A model generated the notes under the pieces. It did not search any database. It had not been told where the DNA came from and saw nothing but the letters and a program-made list of their open reading frames with translations. This document shows, one piece after another, positions 9,556 through 47,693 of a DNA stretch of 64,000 nt. Location of the stretch: the sequence record NC_055712.1, one strand, 5' to 3'. This DNA comes from Escherichia phage phT4A. The position numbers and the translations under genes were made by a program. Within the stretch, counting starts at the first letter, position 1; the number at the start of each line of letters is the position of its first letter.

Positions 9556-10215
9556 ATGGACTACCGTAAAATTTACACCAATCTTATAGAAAAAGCAAGA
9601 GATAGAACACTAAATTGTTACACAGAAAAGCATCATATCATCCCCCGATGTATGGGAGGTTGTGACGATCATGATAATTTAGTAGAACTTACCGCAGAAG
9701 AACATTATGTAGCCCATCAACTTCTTGTCAAGATGTATCCACACAATAATAAGTTGATATATGCTGCTAATATGATGTGCGTCAACGCAACACAGAGAAA
9801 TAATAAAGCATATGGATGGATCCGCAGAAAGTGGATATCTCAGATATCAAAAGACAGGACAGGGACAAAGGCAACAGAAGAACAACGCAAAAAGATGTCA
9901 GAATCCCATAGGGGAGACAAAAACTCTATGTATGGGTTACGCGGTGATAATCATCCTGCTTATGGTCAAAAACCCTGGAGAAATCAAATAACAATGAAAG
10001 GAAAGCATGAATGGAGGTATGCTGGGATTTTCTATGACTGGTATATTAACGATATTAAAGCTGGAATCTATAAAAGACAAGGACACAAGAGAATGCTACA
10101 AGAATTGCAAATTGCAACAATCTCCCGTGTTCCTAGAACATCAATCGAGTTATTCAAAAAGGGGTGGAACCCTTACGAAGATACCGATTGGGTTGAGTGG
10201 GCTAATAATCAATAG
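9556..10215 (+). CDS. freestanding HNH homing endonuclease (Mob-like), opposite to flanking genes
   Basis: HHIIPRCMGGCDDHDNLVELTAEEHYVAHQ HNH motif; paralog of 31484-32209. Confidence 0.8.
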   Translation: MDYRKIYTNLIEKARDRTLNCYTEKHHIIPRCMGGCDDHDNLVELTAEEHYVAHQLLVKMYPHNNKLIYAANMMCVNATQRNNKAYGWIRRKWISQISKDRTGTKATEEQRKKMSESHRGDKNSMYGLRGDNHPAYGQKPWRNQITMKGKHEWRYAGIFYDWYINDIKAGIYKRQGHKRMLQELQIATISRVPRTSIELFKKGWNPYEDTDWVEWANNQ

Positions 10216-17868: not shown

Positions 17869-17968
17869 NNNNNNNNNNNNNNNNNNNNNNNNNNNNNNNN
17901 NNNNNNNNNNNNNNNNNNNNNNNNNNNNNNNNNNNNNNNNNNNNNNNNNNNNNNNNNNNNNNNNNNNN
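17869..17968. other. assembly gap (100 N), true length unknown
   Basis: Run of N; polymerase C-terminus (roughly 110 aa by comparison with T4 gp43) is missing. Confidence 0.9.
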
Positions 17969-29822: not shown

Positions 29823-31497
29823 AACATTGACTTATCAAAATATCTTGTCGGTTGGTAACGTACCGATCGTCATTGATTTTGATTCAGCAAAGAAAACCCT
29901 CATTACGGGTAAAAACGGCGGTGGTAAATCCACCATGATCGAAGCGCTTACATATGCTCTCTTTGGTAAGTCATTTCGCGATCTGAAAGTCGGACAACTG
30001 GTGAACAGTATCAACAAGAAAAAATGTCTGGTTGAACTGTTGATCGAATACGGCAATGATGAATATAAAATCATCCGTGGACAAAAGCCGAAAGTATTTG
30101 AGATCTGGAAGAATGGCGAAAAACTGCCGGAAGATTCAGCCGCTGGTGATTATCAGTCACAGCTTGAATCAATGTTGAATATTAACCTGGTGGGCTTTAA
30201 ACAGGTTATCGTTCTGGGTACTGCTGGTTATGTACCTTTCATGGAACTAAAAACACCAGATCGCCGTAAACTGGTTGAAGATTTGTTGTCTTTGTCTATC
30301 ATCAGTGAAATGGACAAACTGAACAAATCATACATCCGTGGTGTTAACCGTGAACTGGATACGCTTTCAATGCAGATTGGACACGTACAACAGCAGATCA
30401 CAACACATCAAAAGTTCATTGACGAACAACGGGCAAAAGCAAATCAGAATACGGCGCGTTACCAGGATATCTACGATTCCCACGTAGAAACAGCAAAACA
30501 GATTAAAGCGCAATTAGTTGAACTTCAAACCCAGATCGCAGAATGTGTGATCAATGGTGAAGACCAAACAGCAAATATTCAAAAACTGCGTGATGGCTAT
30601 ACACGCCTCTCAATGAACGTAGAACAGTTGCAGCGTCTTGAGGTGATGTATCGCAAGGGTGGTGAATGTCCGGCCTGTAAACAGCCAATTAGCCCCACTC
30701 CTGAACGCATGGAAGAAATTGCCGAGAACATTAAAAACGGTACTCAGAAACTTACGCTGATTAAGAACAAGCAAGATCAGCTACAGAAAATCATGGATGA
30801 TTTACTAACACAACAACGTACACTAAATGGGCTGAAATCCAAATACGAATCACTACGCGGTACACTTCAAAATGAAGTTGCAGCGGCTAAACGTGTTCGG
30901 GCTGTCATGGATAAAGCACAGGAAGACGTGGTGATCGACGAATCCCCAGTTGAAAAACTCCGTGAAGATGAAAAGGAACTTGATTCTAAACGTTCTGGAT
31001 TTGTCAAGGAAAAATATTTTAGAGGTATTGTTACGGATCTGCTGAAAGATTCCGGCGTTAAAGCGAGCATCGTTAAACGTTATATTCCTTACTTCAATAA
31101 ACAGATTGCGTACTATCTGGATCTGTTGGGTGCTGATTATCAGTTCACTCTGGATGACGAATTTAACGAATCGATTAAATCGCTGGGTCGTAATGATTTT
31201 AGTTACGCATCGTTCAGTCAAGGCGAAAGAGCACGTATTAACCTTGCTTTATTGTTCACCTGGCGCGATGTAACCAGTAAAATTTCTGGTGTTGATTTAT
31301 CCCTTCTGATCCTGGATGAAGTGTACGATGGTGCAATTGATCGTGATGGTAGTTTTGCTGTAAAAGCACTATTGGATGGGATAAATGGTAACGTAATTGT
31401 TATCAGTCATCAGGATTTGGATCCGGAAGATTTCGACCGACATATTGTTATGTCAAAAGTCGGTCGATTCTCTAAAATGGAAGTTAAGAAGTCTTAA
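29803..31497 (+). CDS. 46: recombination endonuclease subunit (gp46, Rad50/SbcC-like ATPase)
   Basis: 564 aa; Walker A GKNGGGKST, coiled-coil middle, signature/Walker B at C-terminus. Confidence 0.9.
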   Translation: MMKLKFKTLTYQNILSVGNVPIVIDFDSAKKTLITGKNGGGKSTMIEALTYALFGKSFRDLKVGQLVNSINKKKCLVELLIEYGNDEYKIIRGQKPKVFEIWKNGEKLPEDSAAGDYQSQLESMLNINLVGFKQVIVLGTAGYVPFMELKTPDRRKLVEDLLSLSIISEMDKLNKSYIRGVNRELDTLSMQIGHVQQQITTHQKFIDEQRAKANQNTARYQDIYDSHVETAKQIKAQLVELQTQIAECVINGEDQTANIQKLRDGYTRLSMNVEQLQRLEVMYRKGGECPACKQPISPTPERMEEIAENIKNGTQKLTLIKNKQDQLQKIMDDLLTQQRTLNGLKSKYESLRGTLQNEVAAAKRVRAVMDKAQEDVVIDESPVEKLREDEKELDSKRSGFVKEKYFRGIVTDLLKDSGVKASIVKRYIPYFNKQIAYYLDLLGADYQFTLDDEFNESIKSLGRNDFSYASFSQGERARINLALLFTWRDVTSKISGVDLSLLILDEVYDGAIDRDGSFAVKALLDGINGNVIVISHQDLDPEDFDRHIVMSKVGRFSKMEVKKS

Positions 31498-32209
31498 ACT
31501 TGCAGTTATCAAAATGCCAGCGATTCATATTGCTGGCATCACCAGATTTATTGCAATATGGACAAATCAACTGCTTCCTTTTTGCTGGCGTCTTTCTATT
31601 TGGGTTATTTCTGCAATACGGTATATGTGAACGCAGATAATGTAATGACGATTCTGTTCCGCAATATGGACAATTGCCCCGTTCTTTAGGTACGTTTCCG
31701 TTCTTATGGGAACACGGGATACCCTCGAACTTATGTTTCAATCCTTCATTACCTGGTTTCAGTTTGCAGTTGTCGAAGTGCCAACGAGTCATATTTCCAA
31801 TTATACCTGATTTTCCGCAATGAGGACACACAACCCTTTCTTGTTGCTTTTTGGCTTTACTCATTCGCTGTCTGGTTTCTTCGGTGAACTCTCTATTCCT
31901 ATGTGCTTCTGACGCCTTTTTCTTTAACCATTCATAGCGGCGGTTAGCTGTTCTTTCCTTTGATCTATTGGAACCAACTGTTAACATATGTGCTGCAAAA
32001 ACAAGTTTGTTGTTTCCTGGGTACATCTTGACTAATAACAGATGCGCAATATAATGTTGACGCGCTGTAAGATTAACCAAATTATCATCAGAATCTGTTC
32101 CACCTATGCACTTAGGTATGATATGGTGTGATTCTGTATATCCATCATACTGCGTTTGTTTAGCATGTTCTATGATAGAGTTATAAATTTTGTTATAGTT
32201 CATAAACAT
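31484..32209 (-). CDS. freestanding HNH homing endonuclease with C-terminal zinc-finger repeats
   Basis: HHIIPKCIGGTDSDDNLVNLTARQHYIAH; repeated CP.CxKSG...RWHFDNCK modules; paralog of 9556-10215. Confidence 0.8.
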   Translation of the reverse strand: MFMNYNKIYNSIIEHAKQTQYDGYTESHHIIPKCIGGTDSDDNLVNLTARQHYIAHLLLVKMYPGNNKLVFAAHMLTVGSNRSKERTANRRYEWLKKKASEAHRNREFTEETRQRMSKAKKQQERVVCPHCGKSGIIGNMTRWHFDNCKLKPGNEGLKHKFEGIPCSHKNGNVPKERGNCPYCGTESSLHYLRSHIPYCRNNPNRKTPAKRKQLICPYCNKSGDASNMNRWHFDNCKFKTS

Positions 32210-36559: not shown

Positions 36560-38054
36560 ATGAATGACATTAAAGTAGTAGTAAAATCCTCTGGTGTACG
36601 CCAGCCGTTTGACAAAGAAAAAATATACAAAGTGCTCAAGTGGGCCTGTGATGGTCATAATATCGATGTTCGTGCATTCCTTGAAAATGTATTAGAACTG
36701 ATCCGCGATGGTATGACTACCAAACAAATTCAACGTATCGCTATCAAGTATGCAGCAGATCATATTTCTGTTAAAGAACCGGATTGGCAATACGTAGCAT
36801 CGAATCTTGAAATGTTTGCATTGCGTAAAGACGTTTACGGTCAGTTCGATCCTATCCCGTTCTACGATCACATCGTTAAAATGGTTGAAGCGGGGAAATA
36901 CGATAAAGAGATCCTGGAAAAATACAGCAAGCAAGATATTCAAGTTTTCGAACGTGCAATTGATCATGATAAGGATTTTGAATTTTCGTATGCTGGTTCC
37001 CAACAGTTAATCGGGAAATATCTGGTTCAGGATCGCGATACTGGCGAAATCTTTGAAACCCCTCAGTATGCGTTTATGCTTATTGCGATGTGTCTGCATC
37101 AGGAAGAAACTGGGTTAGCACAGGTTACGCATATCGTTGATTTTTATAACGCAATTTCCGATCGCAAACTGTCTCTACCGACTCCAATTATGGCGGGTGT
37201 ACGTACTCCTACGCGCCAGTTCTCCAGTTGTGTAGTAATTGAATCGGGTGATTCTCTTGGTTCTCTTAACGCTGTAACCTCTGCGATCGTGAAGTATATT
37301 TCACAACGTGCTGGTATTGGGGTTAACGCGGGACATATTCGCGCAATGGGTTCTAAAATCCGTGGTGGTGAAGCTGTTCATACTGGTGTGATTCCTTTCT
37401 GGAAACATATTCAAACCGCTGTTAAATCCTGTTCACAGGGTGGCGTTCGTGGTGGTGCTGCAACACTGTATTATCCTTTCTGGCATCTGGAAGTTGAAAA
37501 CCTTCTGGTGTTGAAGAACAACAAAGGCGTAGAAGAAAACCGCGTTCGTCATCTTGATTATGGTGTACAGCTTAACCAGTTGATGTATAAACGCTTAATG
37601 AATCGTGATTACATTACGCTGTTTAGTCCGGATGTTGCTAACGATCGTCTGTATGATCTGTTCTATGAAGCTGATCAGACTGCATTTGAAGAACTGTATG
37701 AAAGCCTGGAAAAAGATCCAACTGTTCGTAAGAAACGCATCAAAGCGGTTGACCTGTTCCAACTTTTAGCACAGGAACGCGCACAGACAGGACGCAAATA
37801 CATTTTCAACACTCATCACGTCAACCAACAGGGTAGTTTTACGGTTCCTGTCCGTATGTCTAACCTGTGTTGTGAGATTGCGATCCCAACGTCGCCGCTG
37901 GATGACGATGATAAAATGGCTGGTGAAATCGGATTGTGTACGCTAATGGCTATCGTTCTGGATAACGCTGATATCAGCGAATTCCCGAAACTCACGCGTA
38001 TTGCAGTACGTGCGCTTGTATAACCTGTTGGATTACCGTAACTACCCTGTAAAA
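36560..38054 (+). CDS. nrdA: ribonucleotide reductase alpha subunit (NrdA), interrupted by +1 frameshift at ~38018 and truncated by gap
   Basis: ATP-cone N-terminus, active-site NLCCEI; in-frame stop 38021-38023 but +1 frame continues YNLLDYRNYP as expected for NrdA. Confidence 0.85.
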
Positions 38055-38154
38055 NNNNNNNNNNNNNNNNNNNNNNNNNNNNNNNNNNNNNNNNNNNNNN
38101 NNNNNNNNNNNNNNNNNNNNNNNNNNNNNNNNNNNNNNNNNNNNNNNNNNNNNN
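38055..38154. other. assembly gap (100 N), true length unknown
   Basis: Run of N; roughly the C-terminal third of NrdA (and possibly further genes such as nrdB) is missing. Confidence 0.9.
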
Positions 38155-38591: not shown

Positions 38592-39729
38592 AATTATCAA
38601 TACCCTTTACAAACAACTCATGCAGTTGTGTGGTGAATCCGAAACATTTTTCTTCGTTGATCAAGTAACCGTGATGGGTACACCTGTTCGAATCTTTAAC
38701 TATCGCATGGCCTCATATACAGACTGGCTAAAGCCTGGTGCTCTGGAATGTCGCGGTATCATGTTTGAAATGGATGGAGATACCCCCGTATCAATCATCA
38801 GCCGCCCTATGGAGAAGTTTTTTAACTATGCCGAGGTAAAGGCATGGGAAGCGCTTAACGAGTCTCCTATTGAATTAGGCGAAGTTTTAGACGTGATGAT
38901 TAAAGAAGATGGTTCCTTGATCTCAACTTTCCTTGACGGTGGATTTCTGGCGGTCAAGTCTAAAGGTTCGGTTAAATCAGAACAAGCTATGGATGCGCAC
39001 AGCGTGTTAATGGCAAATCGTGAATTGCTGACCCGCTTAACTGAGATCGCTAAAGAAAACTATACGGTGAACATGGAATACGTTTCCCCGAAAAACCGTA
39101 TTGTCGTTGGTTATGATTCTCCTGATCTGCGTATCCTGAACGTTCGTCACAACATCACGGGTGAATACATCCCTTATGATGAACTCTTTGCTGACGCGCT
39201 GTTACGTGCGTATCTGGTTAAGCGTGAGAATATCGAAGTACTGGATCTGGATGCATTCGCAAAAGAAGCATATCAGAATGAAGGATTCGAAGGCTATGTT
39301 GTTCTGACAACGAAAGGGTTTGTAAAAATCAAAACAAACTGGTATGTCAATCTGCATCGCACAAAAGATAGCATCACCAACAATAAGGATCTTTTCCTAA
39401 ATATTGTTGAGAATACGGTCGATGACCTGAAACAGCTATTCAGTTCGGATCTGGTCTCTCTGAAAAAGATTGACGATTTCGAAAAACTTTTCCTTGATAG
39501 TCTCAATCGTTTGAGTGCAAAAGCGTTCAAAGCTATTGAAGATAATAAAGGGAAATCGCGTAAAGATTTTGCTATCAGTCTAAGCGCGGATTTGTCAAAC
39601 GACGGTCGGATCATCTTCGGGCCTCTTATGAAGTACTTCGAAGAAACCGATCCACAAAAACTGGTCGATCGCATCATTGAAATGATGGTTAAAAATTACG
39701 ATCAGTTCATTCCTGGAGAGTACAAGTGA
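38572..39729 (+). CDS. rnlA: RNA ligase 1 (RnlA, gene 63 equivalent)
   Basis: 385 aa; collinear with recalled T4 Rnl1 (ALECRGIMFEMDG, IKEDGSL, FKSKGS). Confidence 0.85.
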   Translation: MTKAQTKIINTLYKQLMQLCGESETFFFVDQVTVMGTPVRIFNYRMASYTDWLKPGALECRGIMFEMDGDTPVSIISRPMEKFFNYAEVKAWEALNESPIELGEVLDVMIKEDGSLISTFLDGGFLAVKSKGSVKSEQAMDAHSVLMANRELLTRLTEIAKENYTVNMEYVSPKNRIVVGYDSPDLRILNVRHNITGEYIPYDELFADALLRAYLVKRENIEVLDLDAFAKEAYQNEGFEGYVVLTTKGFVKIKTNWYVNLHRTKDSITNNKDLFLNIVENTVDDLKQLFSSDLVSLKKIDDFEKLFLDSLNRLSAKAFKAIEDNKGKSRKDFAISLSADLSNDGRIIFGPLMKYFEETDPQKLVDRIIEMMVKNYDQFIPGEYK

Positions 39730-40262
39730 AATCATTTGGCGCATATAGCCGAACGATAGAACAAGAAAAAGCAGGGATTGATTCCCTGCTTTCTTTCGTT
39801 GATGTTTTCCCCGAAACTGGAAAAATTTACTGGAATGATAAAGCATATCATAAAAGTAAGAGAGGAAAAGAAGCGGGTTCTATTGTTTGTGAAGAATACC
39901 CTTATACGAAAATAAAGTATGCTGGGAAAAATTACATGAGGCATAGAATAATATTTTACTATGTTCATGGTTACTTACCAATCATAGTTGATCATAAAAA
40001 TGGTCTTGATTTTGGTGATTGTATTGATAATCTTCAAGAATCCGATCCCGTTCATAATATATTGAAGAAAAACAAAACCAGAAAATCTAAAACTACCACA
40101 TCAAAAGGGGTTGACTATCGTTCTTCTCGTGGAAAATATAGAGCACAAATACGGATTAATGGTAAAACGAAACATATAGGATATTATGATACAGAAGAAC
40201 AGGCGTCTATCGCATATGAGGAAACTTTGAATGAATATCAAAAGCATCTTGGGTATGATTAA
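39726..40262 (+). CDS. HNH endonuclease with AP2 DNA-binding domain (freestanding homing endonuclease)
   Basis: IVDHKNGLDFGDCIDNLQ HNH core; C-terminal YRSSRGKYRAQIRINGKTKHIGYYDTEEQASIAYEE AP2-like; paralog of 47175-47693. Confidence 0.8.
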   Translation: MKSFGAYSRTIEQEKAGIDSLLSFVDVFPETGKIYWNDKAYHKSKRGKEAGSIVCEEYPYTKIKYAGKNYMRHRIIFYYVHGYLPIIVDHKNGLDFGDCIDNLQESDPVHNILKKNKTRKSKTTTSKGVDYRSSRGKYRAQIRINGKTKHIGYYDTEEQASIAYEETLNEYQKHLGYD

Positions 40263-41037: not shown

Positions 41038-41421
41038 AATCTGTTTATGACTATTGGCGTTCCGGGTAGTGGAAAAACTACCTGGGCGCATGAGAAAGCC
41101 CGTGAATTGGGTAATACTGTTACGATCTCTCGCGATGATCTGCGTAGCTCTTTGTATAATGCNNNNNNNNNNNNNNNNNNNNNNNNNNNNNNNNNNNNNN
41201 NNNNNNNNNNNNNNNNNNNNNNNNNNNNNNNNNNNNNNNNNNNNNNNNNNNNNNNNNNNNNNGATACCAGGACAGATTTTGAAGTAAAAGAAGAAATTTT
41301 GTTTGACAAGATTTTAGATAAGTATTATCCTGTTATTGCAGTGGACGATAGAGACACTCCGGTCGGGATGTGGCGAGCAAACGGGATTCCGTGCTTACAA
41401 GTCGATTATGGTGATTTCTGA
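41035..41421 (+). CDS. pseT: polynucleotide kinase/3'-phosphatase (Pnk), middle part lost in gap
   Basis: N-terminal kinase P-loop GVPGSGKTTWA; C-terminal DTRTDFEVKEEILF...AVDDRDTPVGMWRANGIPCLQVDYGDF matches T4 Pnk C-terminus. Confidence 0.8.
   Translation: MNLFMTIGVPGSGKTTWAHEKARELGNTVTISRDDLRSSLYNXXXXXXXXXXXXXXXXXXXXXXXXXXXXXXXXXXDTRTDFEVKEEILFDKILDKYYPVIAVDDRDTPVGMWRANGIPCLQVDYGDF
41163..41262. other. assembly gap (100 N), true length unknown
   Basis: Run of N; about 200 aa of Pnk missing by comparison with T4. Confidence 0.9.
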
Positions 41422-43408: not shown

Positions 43409-43485
43409 GGCCCCTTAGCTCAATAGGTAGAGCTAATCACTCATAATGGTTAGGTTCCCGGTTCAAGTCACGGGAGGGGCCACCA
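43409..43485 (+). tRNA. tRNA with CAU anticodon (Met, or Ile if lysidine-modified); T-stem imperfect
   Basis: Hand fold: 7-bp acceptor GGCCCCU/AGGGGCC, canonical D and anticodon arms, loop CUCAUAA, encoded CCA; T-stem has a mismatch. Confidence 0.6.
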
Positions 43486-44427: not shown

Positions 44428-44462
44428 TCAAATGGCTATCTTCGGATAGCCTTATTTTTGGG

Positions 44463-45035
44463 GTGTCTATGCGCTTTTTAAAGTATGCAAGTTGGATCGT
44501 ACTCGTCCCTCTTGACATTATTACTGGAGTATTAGCAATTCTGTTTGCCCCGTTTGTTGTACCATTCTACAACGAGAAAACAGGGCATCTTCCTAAAGGC
44601 TTCCGGTGGATGGAAACCTTCGATAACCCTATTGATGGTGATGGTGGACATATCCGCCGTTGGGCGTCCATACGCTATCATCTGGGGGATTTTGGGGTGT
44701 ACATGCAACGTGTTGGCTGGTTGTGGAGAAACAAGGCTTATAACTTCGCATATCACGTTTTAGGACGTGAAGCGACAAGCAAATTCAACTGGAAAGGCAA
44801 CCCAAAAACAGAAGGTGGGCCGAACCCTGTAAATCATGGGTATCTGCTCATGTGGAACGAATCAGCATGGGGTTTGTACGTTTACAAACCGTGGCTACGG
44901 ATCCACAAAGTGCAATTCTGTTTGCGCGTTTATGCTGGATGGAAACTGAAACAAGAAGTTAGCGACCCAGTTAACCTGGATCGTGCAATGCTGGCGTTTC
45001 ATTTCAACCCGTTCAGGTATTATGTAATCAAGTAA
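44463..45035 (+). CDS. hypothetical Trp-rich membrane protein
   Basis: 190 aa; N-terminal TM segment. Confidence 0.5.
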
Positions 45036-45045
45036 AGGTAATACA

Positions 45046-45408
45046 ATGAAAGCATTTCAAATTTTAGAAGGTTTGCATACTGGTACGATCTATCTGGAAG
45101 AAGGTAACGACGTTCGGATCGTAGTATCAAAAACATTAACTATGGATTCTGTGATCGGTAAAGCTCGCGTTACTCCGTTTGAAAAGCGAGAGATTGAGAT
45201 CGAATATCAACCAACTGTTAAGGTGGAAGGTGGACAGCATTTAAACGTAAACGTGTTGCGCCGCGAAACTCTCCTGGATGCGGTTGAACATCCTGAAAAA
45301 TATCCACAATTGACGATCCGTGTATCTGGTTATGCAGTGCGTTTTAACTCACTGACCCCTGAACAGCAACGCGACGTTATCGCCCGAACCTTTACAGAGA
45401 GTCTATAA
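45046..45408 (+). CDS. grcA: autonomous glycyl-radical cofactor (GrcA/YfiD-like)
   Basis: C-terminal ~60 aa ([17 protein letters not shown]...[33 protein letters not shown]) near-identical to recalled E. coli GrcA incl. RVSGY glycyl-radical motif. Confidence 0.85.
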
Positions 45409-45677
45409 TGGCAATTGATGATATCAAGGGTTATAAACCCCATACTGATAAAAAAGTAGAAACGGTAAACCGTATCAAAGATGCTGAAAATGCATTAGGT
45501 GCAATCCTGGAAGATATCGAACAGCGACTATCAAATTCAGATATTGATTCACTGATAGAGGAAGAATTAGATGAGGTGCTTGAACGTATCCATCAAATTC
45601 AACTAGCGAAAGACCGACTGAAAGAAGCCTCTATGTGGGCGTGTCGTGCGGTGTTTCAGCCTGACGAAAAATATTAA
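45408..45677 (+). CDS. hypothetical protein
   Basis: 89 aa, ATGA overlap. Confidence 0.5.
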   Translation: MAIDDIKGYKPHTDKKVETVNRIKDAENALGAILEDIEQRLSNSDIDSLIEEELDEVLERIHQIQLAKDRLKEASMWACRAVFQPDEKY

Positions 45678-45682
45678 AAATC

Positions 45683-45718
45683 AAGCCGTTGCCGAAAGGT
45701 AGCGGCTTTTTCTTTTTT
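45683..45718 (+). terminator. Rho-independent terminator
   Basis: Hairpin AAGCCGTTGCC-GAAAGG-TAGCGGCTT followed by TTTTTCTTTTTT. Confidence 0.6.
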
Positions 45719-46737: not shown

Positions 46738-47178
46738 ATGGACATCGGATCAGGTAGTCAGTATCCCTCATGCGCTTTAAGCAACTTTGCCCCGCATCCG
46801 TTTACGTTCGACGGGGTAGAATGCGCATCGATGGAGGGGCTTTTACAAAGCCTGAAATTCAGCAATCCAGACATGCAAGCGCATGTATGTACGCTGGTTG
46901 GTAAAGCCGCCAAGTTCAAAGGCAAGAAAAAGAAATGGTATCGCGATCAGACCTTGTACTGGAAAGGTACACCGATCCATCGCGAATCCGAAGCGTACCA
47001 GATTCTTATTGAAAATGCGTACAATGCTCTTTTCCTGAATGACGGGTTCCGCCGTGCGCTGGCAGCAACCGGAAAAAGTACCTTGACACATTCAATGGGG
47101 AAATCTCGTATGAACGAAACTATTCTGACAGAACGAGAATTTATTAGAAATTTGAACAGGTTGAGAAATTTGTTATGA
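46738..47178 (+). CDS. NADAR / YbiA-like (DUF1768) domain protein
   Basis: ALSNFAPHPFTFDGVECASMEGLLQSLKF matches the YbiA/NADAR signature. Confidence 0.7.
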   Translation: MDIGSGSQYPSCALSNFAPHPFTFDGVECASMEGLLQSLKFSNPDMQAHVCTLVGKAAKFKGKKKKWYRDQTLYWKGTPIHRESEAYQILIENAYNALFLNDGFRRALAATGKSTLTHSMGKSRMNETILTEREFIRNLNRLRNLL

Positions 47179-47693
47179 AAAGCGCTGATAACCTAAAAAA
47201 AGAAATTGAAGGAATCAAGAAATTATTGCATTATATCGATGTTGATATAGAGACTGGAATATGTACTTGGAAAAGACCCAGAAAATCTATAAATGTTGGT
47301 GATGTTGCTGGATGTAAGAAAGAAAAATATCATGTTATTTGTTTCGATTATAGGTTGTATAGACGACACAGGATTGTGTTCTATTTTGCTAAAGGTTACT
47401 TACCTCAAGTAGTAGACCACATTCATGGTGTTGAACATGGCGACGGTATTGATAATTTACAAGAGGCATCGCAAAGACAAAACGTTATTAAAAAGAAAGG
47501 ACAGAAAAACAACAAAAGTGGTTATCGAGGGGTGTGTTGGTCGTCTCGTGCTGAAAAGTATCGAGCAACTATAGGTATTGATGGAAAACAAATACATTTA
47601 GGATATTTCGATACTCCAGAAGAAGCAAGTAAAGCATATCATCAAAAAGCGAAAGAAACTTTTGGTGATTTTTATAATCCATTGGTTAAATGA
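47175..47693 (+). CDS. HNH endonuclease with AP2 domain (freestanding homing endonuclease)
   Basis: VVDHIHGVEHGDGIDNLQ HNH core; YRGVCWSSRAEKYRATIGIDGKQIHLGYFDTPEEASKAY AP2-like. Confidence 0.8.
   Translation: MKSADNLKKEIEGIKKLLHYIDVDIETGICTWKRPRKSINVGDVAGCKKEKYHVICFDYRLYRRHRIVFYFAKGYLPQVVDHIHGVEHGDGIDNLQEASQRQNVIKKKGQKNNKSGYRGVCWSSRAEKYRATIGIDGKQIHLGYFDTPEEASKAYHQKAKETFGDFYNPLVK

Follow-up and report, generated by a model that had tools for sequence, protein, structure and literature searches.

The protein considered here is very probably (we put the probability at roughly 0.85) a phage autonomous glycyl radical cofactor of the GrcA/YfiD type, that is, a spare part for pyruvate formate-lyase (PFL). 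Its gene lies in a stretch of 64,000 nucleotides, the whole of which we call the window. On alignment, the gene is the Slopekvirus ortholog of T4 vs.6, which encodes Y06I. The spare-part role proposed in the original prediction is established for Y06I, which is 76% identical to the window protein, and it would be expected to extend to the latter. The gene family is already known. Y06I was tested biochemically in 2001 and the gene is annotated in near-identical phage records, so the finding is correct but not new. What we add is modest: selection on the gene is quantified (0 nonsynonymous against 33 synonymous differences), the match to Klebsiella-type GrcA is exact over the C-terminal half, and both contrast with T4-group phages, whose 3′ halves were seemingly copied recently from E. 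coli.

The protein matches the Pfam model Gly_radical (PF01228) with an E value of 3.6e-18 (66.5 bits; cutoff, 22.2). A BLASTP comparison with E. coli GrcA (WP_000627807) gives 71 identities in 103 positions (E = 1e-50), with residues 19-120 placed on GrcA 25-127. The last ~60 residues, including RVSGY, had been described from the sequence as essentially identical to E. coli GrcA, and 58 of these 60 residues are indeed the same. Identity is complete (60/60), however, to the GrcA of two Klebsiella entries, one Raoultella and Salmonella, and the best protein match is Klebsiella-type GrcA rather than the E. coli protein that had been named. This exact 60-residue variant (…LLDAVEH…) occurs in 11 of the 80 bacterial species sampled, including all three Klebsiella/Raoultella entries. 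The protein alignments with GrcA place the similarity over 102 of the 120 residues, so it is not restricted to the short glycyl-radical motif. As a separate observation, a full-length bacterial-type grcA is present on a 276-kb plasmid-labelled record (Klebsiella sp. WOUb02 plasmid unnamed4, NZ_CP170105.1 36554-39934); thus, bacterial copies of grcA are not always chromosomal.

The two halves of the protein differ in their similarity to bacterial GrcA. The N-terminal half is 23-27% identical to residues 1-67 of bacterial GrcA, with an alignment that begins at residue 19 and includes the common motifs AR.(I/V)V(S/A)K, ED and RE(I/V), and is 55-88% identical among T4-like phages. Among solved structures, the closest relative is the NMR structure of GrcA (6OWR, E = 4.7e-41), followed by PFL, and residues 57-120 align with PFL 696-759 (E = 1.6e-27). 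The PFL-activating enzyme recognises the heptapeptide RVSGYAV (structure 3CB8), and this heptapeptide is intact in the window protein. A single-sequence AlphaFold2 model has a mean pLDDT of 42, with residues 1-71 below 50, and is uninformative on order or disorder in the N-terminal half.

T4 Vs.6 and the window protein are of equal length and align without gaps, with 91 of 120 residues identical. Residues 1-120 match positions 1-121 of the PHROG 1209 profile (E = 2.6e-59), and the copy in Klebsiella phage KP15 is annotated as "Vs.6". The window gene has the full-length similarity and the conserved position by vs.4 that characterize the phage Vs.6/Y06I family, with a different upstream neighbour, and also the features of the GrcA kind: a small stand-alone protein, a PFL-type radical domain, RVSGY and Gly95. 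Against the GrcA equivalog model (NCBIfam TIGR04365), residues 18-120 match positions 23-126 with 151.6 bits (E = 1.2e-44), which is below the 170-bit cutoff because the N-terminal half has diverged. We therefore place the protein in a phage subfamily of the GrcA kind and not with the bacterial-type equivalogs; given this divergence, docking and regulation may differ from those of bacterial GrcA. The PFL model (TIGR01255) is matched only at profile positions 678-744 of 744, with 91.7 bits against a cutoff of 994. Since only the last ~65 positions of PFL are represented, the label "pyruvate formate-lyase" carried by some phage records is a misnomer. A full-length glycyl radical enzyme such as PflB or TdcE has a ten-stranded barrel of ~750 residues with catalytic cysteines, and the 120 residues found here do not amount to one. 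One IMG/VR locus (L122), on a 19-kb contig, was excluded because the GrcA that it encodes (MITGIQITK...) is of the bacterial type and not of the phage type.

The gene is the middle member of a three-gene cassette (Table 1). The predicted product has a mass of 13.7 kDa and a pI of 5.9, computed from the window ORF, and its predicted radical site, Gly95 (codon 45328-45330), is equivalent to Gly734 of PflB. The Shine-Dalgarno-like AAGG shares one base, the last of the stop codon, with the upstream DUF7338 gene, and the record of Citrobacter phage Miller has an annotated ribosome binding site in the same relative place. The start assigned to the DUF7338 gene agrees with the 567-nt annotation in KP15 and in Klebsiella phage vB_KpnM-VAC66. 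This upstream gene is kept in KP15, VAC66, Miller and RB43-like phages, and stands where T4 has vs.7 and vs.8. Its identification as T4 vs.8/vs.7 was ruled out by sequence comparison, which showed zero similarity to T4 Vs.8. Downstream, the acb2 product is 51% identical to T4 Vs.4. The acb2 ATG and the GrcA-like TAA have one base in common, an overlap that suggests translational coupling of the two genes; a metabolic helper and a counter-defence gene thus appear to be joined within one small cassette. Putative terminators are annotated in KP15 at the places of both hairpins. A consensus scan returned nothing convincing as a sigma-70 promoter upstream of the cassette (4 sites against 6.1 expected). 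Likewise, there is no MotA box (WWTGCTTYA) near the cassette, and the overall count of 14 against 7.9 expected does not amount to enrichment.

Table 1 Positions in the window of the GrcA-like gene, its parts and the surrounding cassette
Feature	Position	Strand	Basis
Terminator-like hairpin, 5′ of the three-gene cassette	44434..44451	+	Consensus scan
DUF7338 gene, PHROG 2143 (KP15_72), function without assignment	44469..45035	+	Pfam DUF7338, E = 5e-65
Shine-Dalgarno-like AAGG	45035..45038	+	Read from sequence; 7 nt upstream of the GrcA-like ATG
GrcA-like CDS (ortholog of T4 vs.6/Y06I; KP15_73)	45046..45408	+	ORF, ATG to TAA; Pfam Gly_radical; PHROG 1209
N-terminal half, residues 1-60 (phage-specific)	45046..45225	+	Per-half alignment
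C-terminal glycyl radical domain, residues 61-120	45226..45405	+	Corresponds to GrcA 68-127 and PflB 700-759
RVSGY glycyl radical loop, residues 92-96	45319..45333	+	Computed position; PFL alignment
vs.4/acb2 ortholog (Acb2, anti-CBASS cyclic-nucleotide sponge)	45408..45677	+	Pfam Acb2_Tad1_hairpin, E = 3.4e-17
Strong terminator-like hairpin (11 pairs, then T run) closing the cassette after acb2	45683..45708	+	Consensus scan

The window comes from a KP15-like Slopekvirus. It is collinear with positions ~5,900-69,900 of KP15, with 97-99% identity over most of its length and a few blocks at 81-89%. According to its record, KP15 is a T4-like myovirus of Klebsiella (Slopekvirus, Straboviridae). 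The GrcA-like gene itself is 99.7% identical at the nucleotide level to that of VAC66 and 98.9% identical to that of KP15. Three runs of exactly 100 N interrupt the window (17869-17968, 38055-38154 and 41163-41262), which may be assembly gaps or masking. The first falls in the DNA polymerase region, and the second replaces ~2.2 kb of KP15 that hold the 3′ third of nrdA, all of nrdB and KP15_58. A loss of 3′ nrdA and nrdB was considered and rejected, as this is a 100-N assembly gap and not a deletion; the truncated 487-residue NrdA ORF (36560-38023) is thus an artefact. Four ORFs are without an aligned counterpart in KP15: 39726-40262, 47175-47693 and 9556-10215 on the plus strand, and 31484-32209 on the minus strand. 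Two of these encode HNH and AP2-domain homing endonucleases, one has a NUMOD3 motif, and the remaining one encodes a 240-residue protein with weak zinc-ribbon matches only. The KP15-unaligned ORFs probably represent insertions of mobile endonucleases that differ from one Slopekvirus to the next. ARAGORN calls a tRNA-Met (CAT) at 43409-43485 (plus strand) and makes no call between 43490 and 43700 for the adjacent tRNA-Gln annotated in KP15.

The functional assignment relies on work with the E. coli and T4 proteins. Only two "spare part" proteins have been validated, E. coli YfiD and T4 Y06I, as stated in PMC8683613 with reference to Wagner et al. (2001, BBRC 285:456). As described there, the PFL-activating enzyme installs a glycyl radical on Y06I or YfiD, and a complex of either protein with PFL that has been cleaved by oxygen at Gly734 restores activity in vitro. 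In YfiD, the segment 61-127 folds like PFL 693-759; the segment 1-60, although disordered, is needed for binding to cleaved PFL and for efficient installation of the radical (PMC8683613).

For the window protein we propose the following sequence of events. The 120-residue protein would be made during infection from the cassette of DUF7338, vs.6 and acb2 genes. The host radical-SAM activase PflA would take a hydrogen from Gly95 in the RVSGYAV loop and, after oxygen cleavage of the host PflB at Gly734, residues ~57-120 would plug into the damaged enzyme. This insertion would bring back the radical site, and with it the conversion of pyruvate to acetyl-CoA and formate and the generation of ATP through Pta-AckA, in microaerobic infected cells. 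The phage-specific N-terminal half probably aids docking to cleaved PFL and activation, as do residues 1-60 of E. coli GrcA. We infer that the protein has the same activity with Klebsiella PflA and PflB and that the phage benefits from it; a gain in phage fitness is assumed.

A different partner has been suggested in the literature. From the common Pfam domain, Nolan et al. (2006, PMC1524935) proposed a role in nucleotide metabolism, in which case the protein would serve the anaerobic ribonucleotide reductase NrdD of the phage itself, as a spare part or an accessory, and not host PFL. The original prediction had called for a check for nrdD and nrdG elsewhere in the genome. Both genes are present in the closest annotated relative, KP15, which encodes NrdD (152,709-154,832), NrdG (157,386-157,877) and NrdH, but they lie outside the window, where tblastn gives no match to NrdD, NrdG or NrdH within the 64 kb, as the KP15 map predicts. 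The nrdD and nrdG genes of KP15 are ~100 kb from its GrcA-like gene, and the window follows the KP15 map. Closer arrangements occur in other phages and would suit the nucleotide-metabolism proposal: the homologue is two genes downstream of nrdD in Yersinia phage fHe-Yen9-04 (L088:1-1557), and comes directly after nrdB in Vibrio phage D479 (L092:1-1413), whereas its place in T4-like phages is the vs region. Against this, the domain is of the PFL/GrcA type and identical to that of Klebsiella-type GrcA, and it has no sequence relationship to the radical loop of KP15 NrdD (RRTCGYLGAP) or to the residues around that loop, which argues against the 2006 suggestion. In addition, the T4 ortholog complements PFL, according to PMC8683613. 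We consider an accessory role for NrdD very unlikely.

The comparison at the DNA level bears on how the phage came by the gene. Over the C-terminal 60 codons, the window gene and a Klebsiella grcA have 0 nonsynonymous and 33 synonymous differences, spread over 32 of the 60 codons. The dN is 0 over 135 nonsynonymous sites and the pS is 0.73 (33 of 45 sites), which is saturated. The codon usage that the original prediction had described as different is thus borne out, all of the differences being synonymous. Nucleotide identity in this half is 81.7% to that Klebsiella grcA, likewise 81.7% to E. coli grcA, and 75.6-83.9% across the grcA genes of 81 bacterial species. Among 5,426 complete E. coli genomes none exceeds the 80-90% band, and the best among the matches listed is 81.7%, over nucleotides 178-363. 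When the same peptide was randomly recoded with synonymous codons, using enterobacterial grcA codon usage, the identity was 78.5% (95% range 74.4-82.2%). The observed identity is near this recoding floor, and the DNA therefore keeps essentially no similarity beyond that forced by the protein.

The codons had also been described as shifted towards AT. This holds in comparison with Klebsiella/Raoultella, where the phage has A or T against G or C at 16-23 sites, compared with 5-9 sites that differ in the opposite direction, but is weak in comparison with E. coli grcA, where the split is only 14 versus 10. For the C-terminal half, GC3 amounts to 40% in the phage gene, compared with 45% in E. coli and 48-58% in Klebsiella/Raoultella.

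Based on the dN of 0, the saturated synonymous sites and the identity at the recoding floor, we conclude that the GrcA-like gene is under strong purifying selection and was not recently captured, as had been argued from the codons. The data do not separate an ancient capture from an old conversion by a Klebsiella-type host with full synonymous turnover afterwards, and either history needs the same selection. The N-terminal half is constrained as well: compared with Citrobacter phage Miller, its dN is 0.08 and its dS 0.81 (dN/dS ~0.1), and among relatives the dN of the GrcA-like gene is below that of both flanking genes. The dS of the two halves has no constant order. In comparison with Miller/RB43-like phages it is higher in the C-terminal half (~2.4 versus 0.8), and in comparison with another group of relatives the order flips (0.64-0.76 in the C-terminal versus 1.1 in the N-terminal half; flanking genes, 0.66-2.4). 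In neighbour-joining trees of the N-terminal half and of the full length, the window gene groups with Miller/RB43-like phages, beside a group of T4, Jiaodavirus and Karamvirus. The bacterial GrcA clade lies among diverse phage branches in these trees, the rooting and support of which are too weak for captures to be counted.

These data also speak to whether the phage recently took up host grcA and carries it as a neutral passenger that serves no function specific to the phage. The 100% identity of the C-terminal half to the Klebsiella-type protein is what such a capture would leave, and T4-group phages show that DNA is exchanged with host grcA (see below). But the best nucleotide identities, both across the 81 species and in the E. 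coli genomes, stand at the floor set by synonymous recoding, and GC3 has moved towards the phage composition. The N-terminal half is unlike that of any bacterial GrcA and yet is conserved among phages, and the gene is syntenic, in about 1,590 phage records. Since the synonymous sites are saturated, the passenger explanation is already refuted for the window gene, and we give it almost no weight.

The protein might also do something other than repair. It could be a decoy that titrates PflA or occupies PflB and so redirects pyruvate flux, or the N-terminal half could retarget the radical domain to another partner. Such manipulation would fit the replacement of the part that serves PFL binding and activation in E. 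coli GrcA by a phage-conserved sequence under purifying selection, the score below the GrcA equivalog cutoff, and the apparent translational coupling to the counter-defence gene acb2. The adjacency to acb2 is, however, not universal among the homologues, and full conservation of the catalytic domain is expected of a working cofactor and is not needed for a decoy. Moreover, the N-terminal half of T4 Y06I is of the same phage type (57% identical), and Y06I restores PFL activity in vitro, as reported in PMC8683613. Manipulation in place of repair is in our judgement unlikely, and repair of PFL is the reading that we retain.

The T4 gene has a different history at the nucleotide level. T4 vs.6 (NC_000866 63557-63919; L003:9558-9920, minus strand) is a chimera: nucleotide identity to E. 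coli grcA is 97.2% over the last 60 codons, with a dS of 0.10, but 43.9% over the first 60. The switch is sharp, at the EGGQH codons, and GC3 is 18% before and 42% after the midpoint of the gene. Six T4-group contigs from IMG/VR (L104-L109) have the same pattern, at 96.7-97.8%. E. coli grcA diverges from its Klebsiella and Salmonella counterparts to a similar extent in both halves and thus looks vertically inherited, so the direction of conversion is most likely from host to phage. The 3′ half of the T4-group gene accordingly looks like the product of recent gene conversion by host grcA. This signal, a host-like 3′ half, is absent from the window gene. In the literature that we searched, we found no earlier report of the nucleotide-level chimerism of T4 vs.6.

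The window gene matches the Klebsiella type exactly and the T4 gene the E. coli type, a pairing that hints at a radical domain kept matched to the host. Only two coupled residues, 77 and 81, tell the types apart (L77/E81 versus E/K), and there are counter-examples in RB49-like and T5-like coliphages with L at position 77. A broader proposal is that the phage spare part is kept matched to host GrcA, PflB and PflA, through purifying selection in the window gene and recurrent conversion of the 3′ half in the T4 group, with the N-terminal half evolving separately. The phage-specific N-terminal half might then give different docking or regulation. We regard this proposal as speculative and give it rather low odds. 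If it is true, vs.6 would be a small, tractable case in which an auxiliary metabolic gene tracks its host, and host compatibility would be marked by the helix positions L77/E81 versus E/K.

The family is widely distributed. A tblastn search found homologues in 1,586 phage records, of which 1,531 cover at least 80% of the query. The carriers include T4-like phages of Escherichia, Salmonella, Klebsiella, Shigella, Yersinia, Aeromonas and Proteus, and also T5-like phages, jumbo Yersinia phages and Vibrio phages. In many records, including those of near-identical Klebsiella phages, the gene already bears the name grcA or autonomous glycyl radical cofactor. In an earlier comparison, vs.6 was among the 11 T4 ORFs of unassigned function that are conserved in all five T4-like genomes compared (Nolan et al. 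2006, PMC1524935). In the reading favoured here, this phage, like T4, would carry a part with which a central enzyme of host fermentation can be repaired. Such a part fits the anaerobic ribonucleotide reductase genes of KP15 and the oxygen-poor, fluctuating gut.

Bacterial GrcA/YfiD (P68066 in E. coli) is likewise a small stand-alone glycyl radical domain protein, with homology to the window protein that is detectable from residue 19 on. The phage protein is 7 residues shorter, however, and is without the bacterial start (23 residues), and its gene sits in a phage cassette and not beside ung. In PflB (2PFL/1H16), the aligned segment 696-759 comprises the β-strand, the Gly loop and the C-terminal helix that are lost or damaged on cleavage by O2. 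In contrast to PflB, the window protein stands alone and has neither the catalytic barrel nor Cys418/Cys419, and therefore cannot act by itself. Over the last 60 residues it is ~83% identical to PflB, against 100% for Klebsiella-type GrcA.

The closest system is T4 Vs.6, with which the window protein has in common the phage-type N-terminal half, a C-terminal domain that is 95% identical and the RVSGY loop. Both genes are upstream of vs.4/acb2 in a T4-like genome. The arrangements differ in that the T4 order is vs.8-vs.7-vs.6-vs.5-vs.4, so that the small vs.5 parts vs.6 from vs.4, and in that vs.7 and vs.8 are upstream in T4 where the window has the DUF7338 gene. T4 has the E. coli-type residues LEDAVKH and the window the Klebsiella-type LLDAVEH. 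In the C-terminal half, T4 retains its near-identity to E. coli grcA at the nucleotide level, whereas the window gene, at ~82%, is fully recoded.
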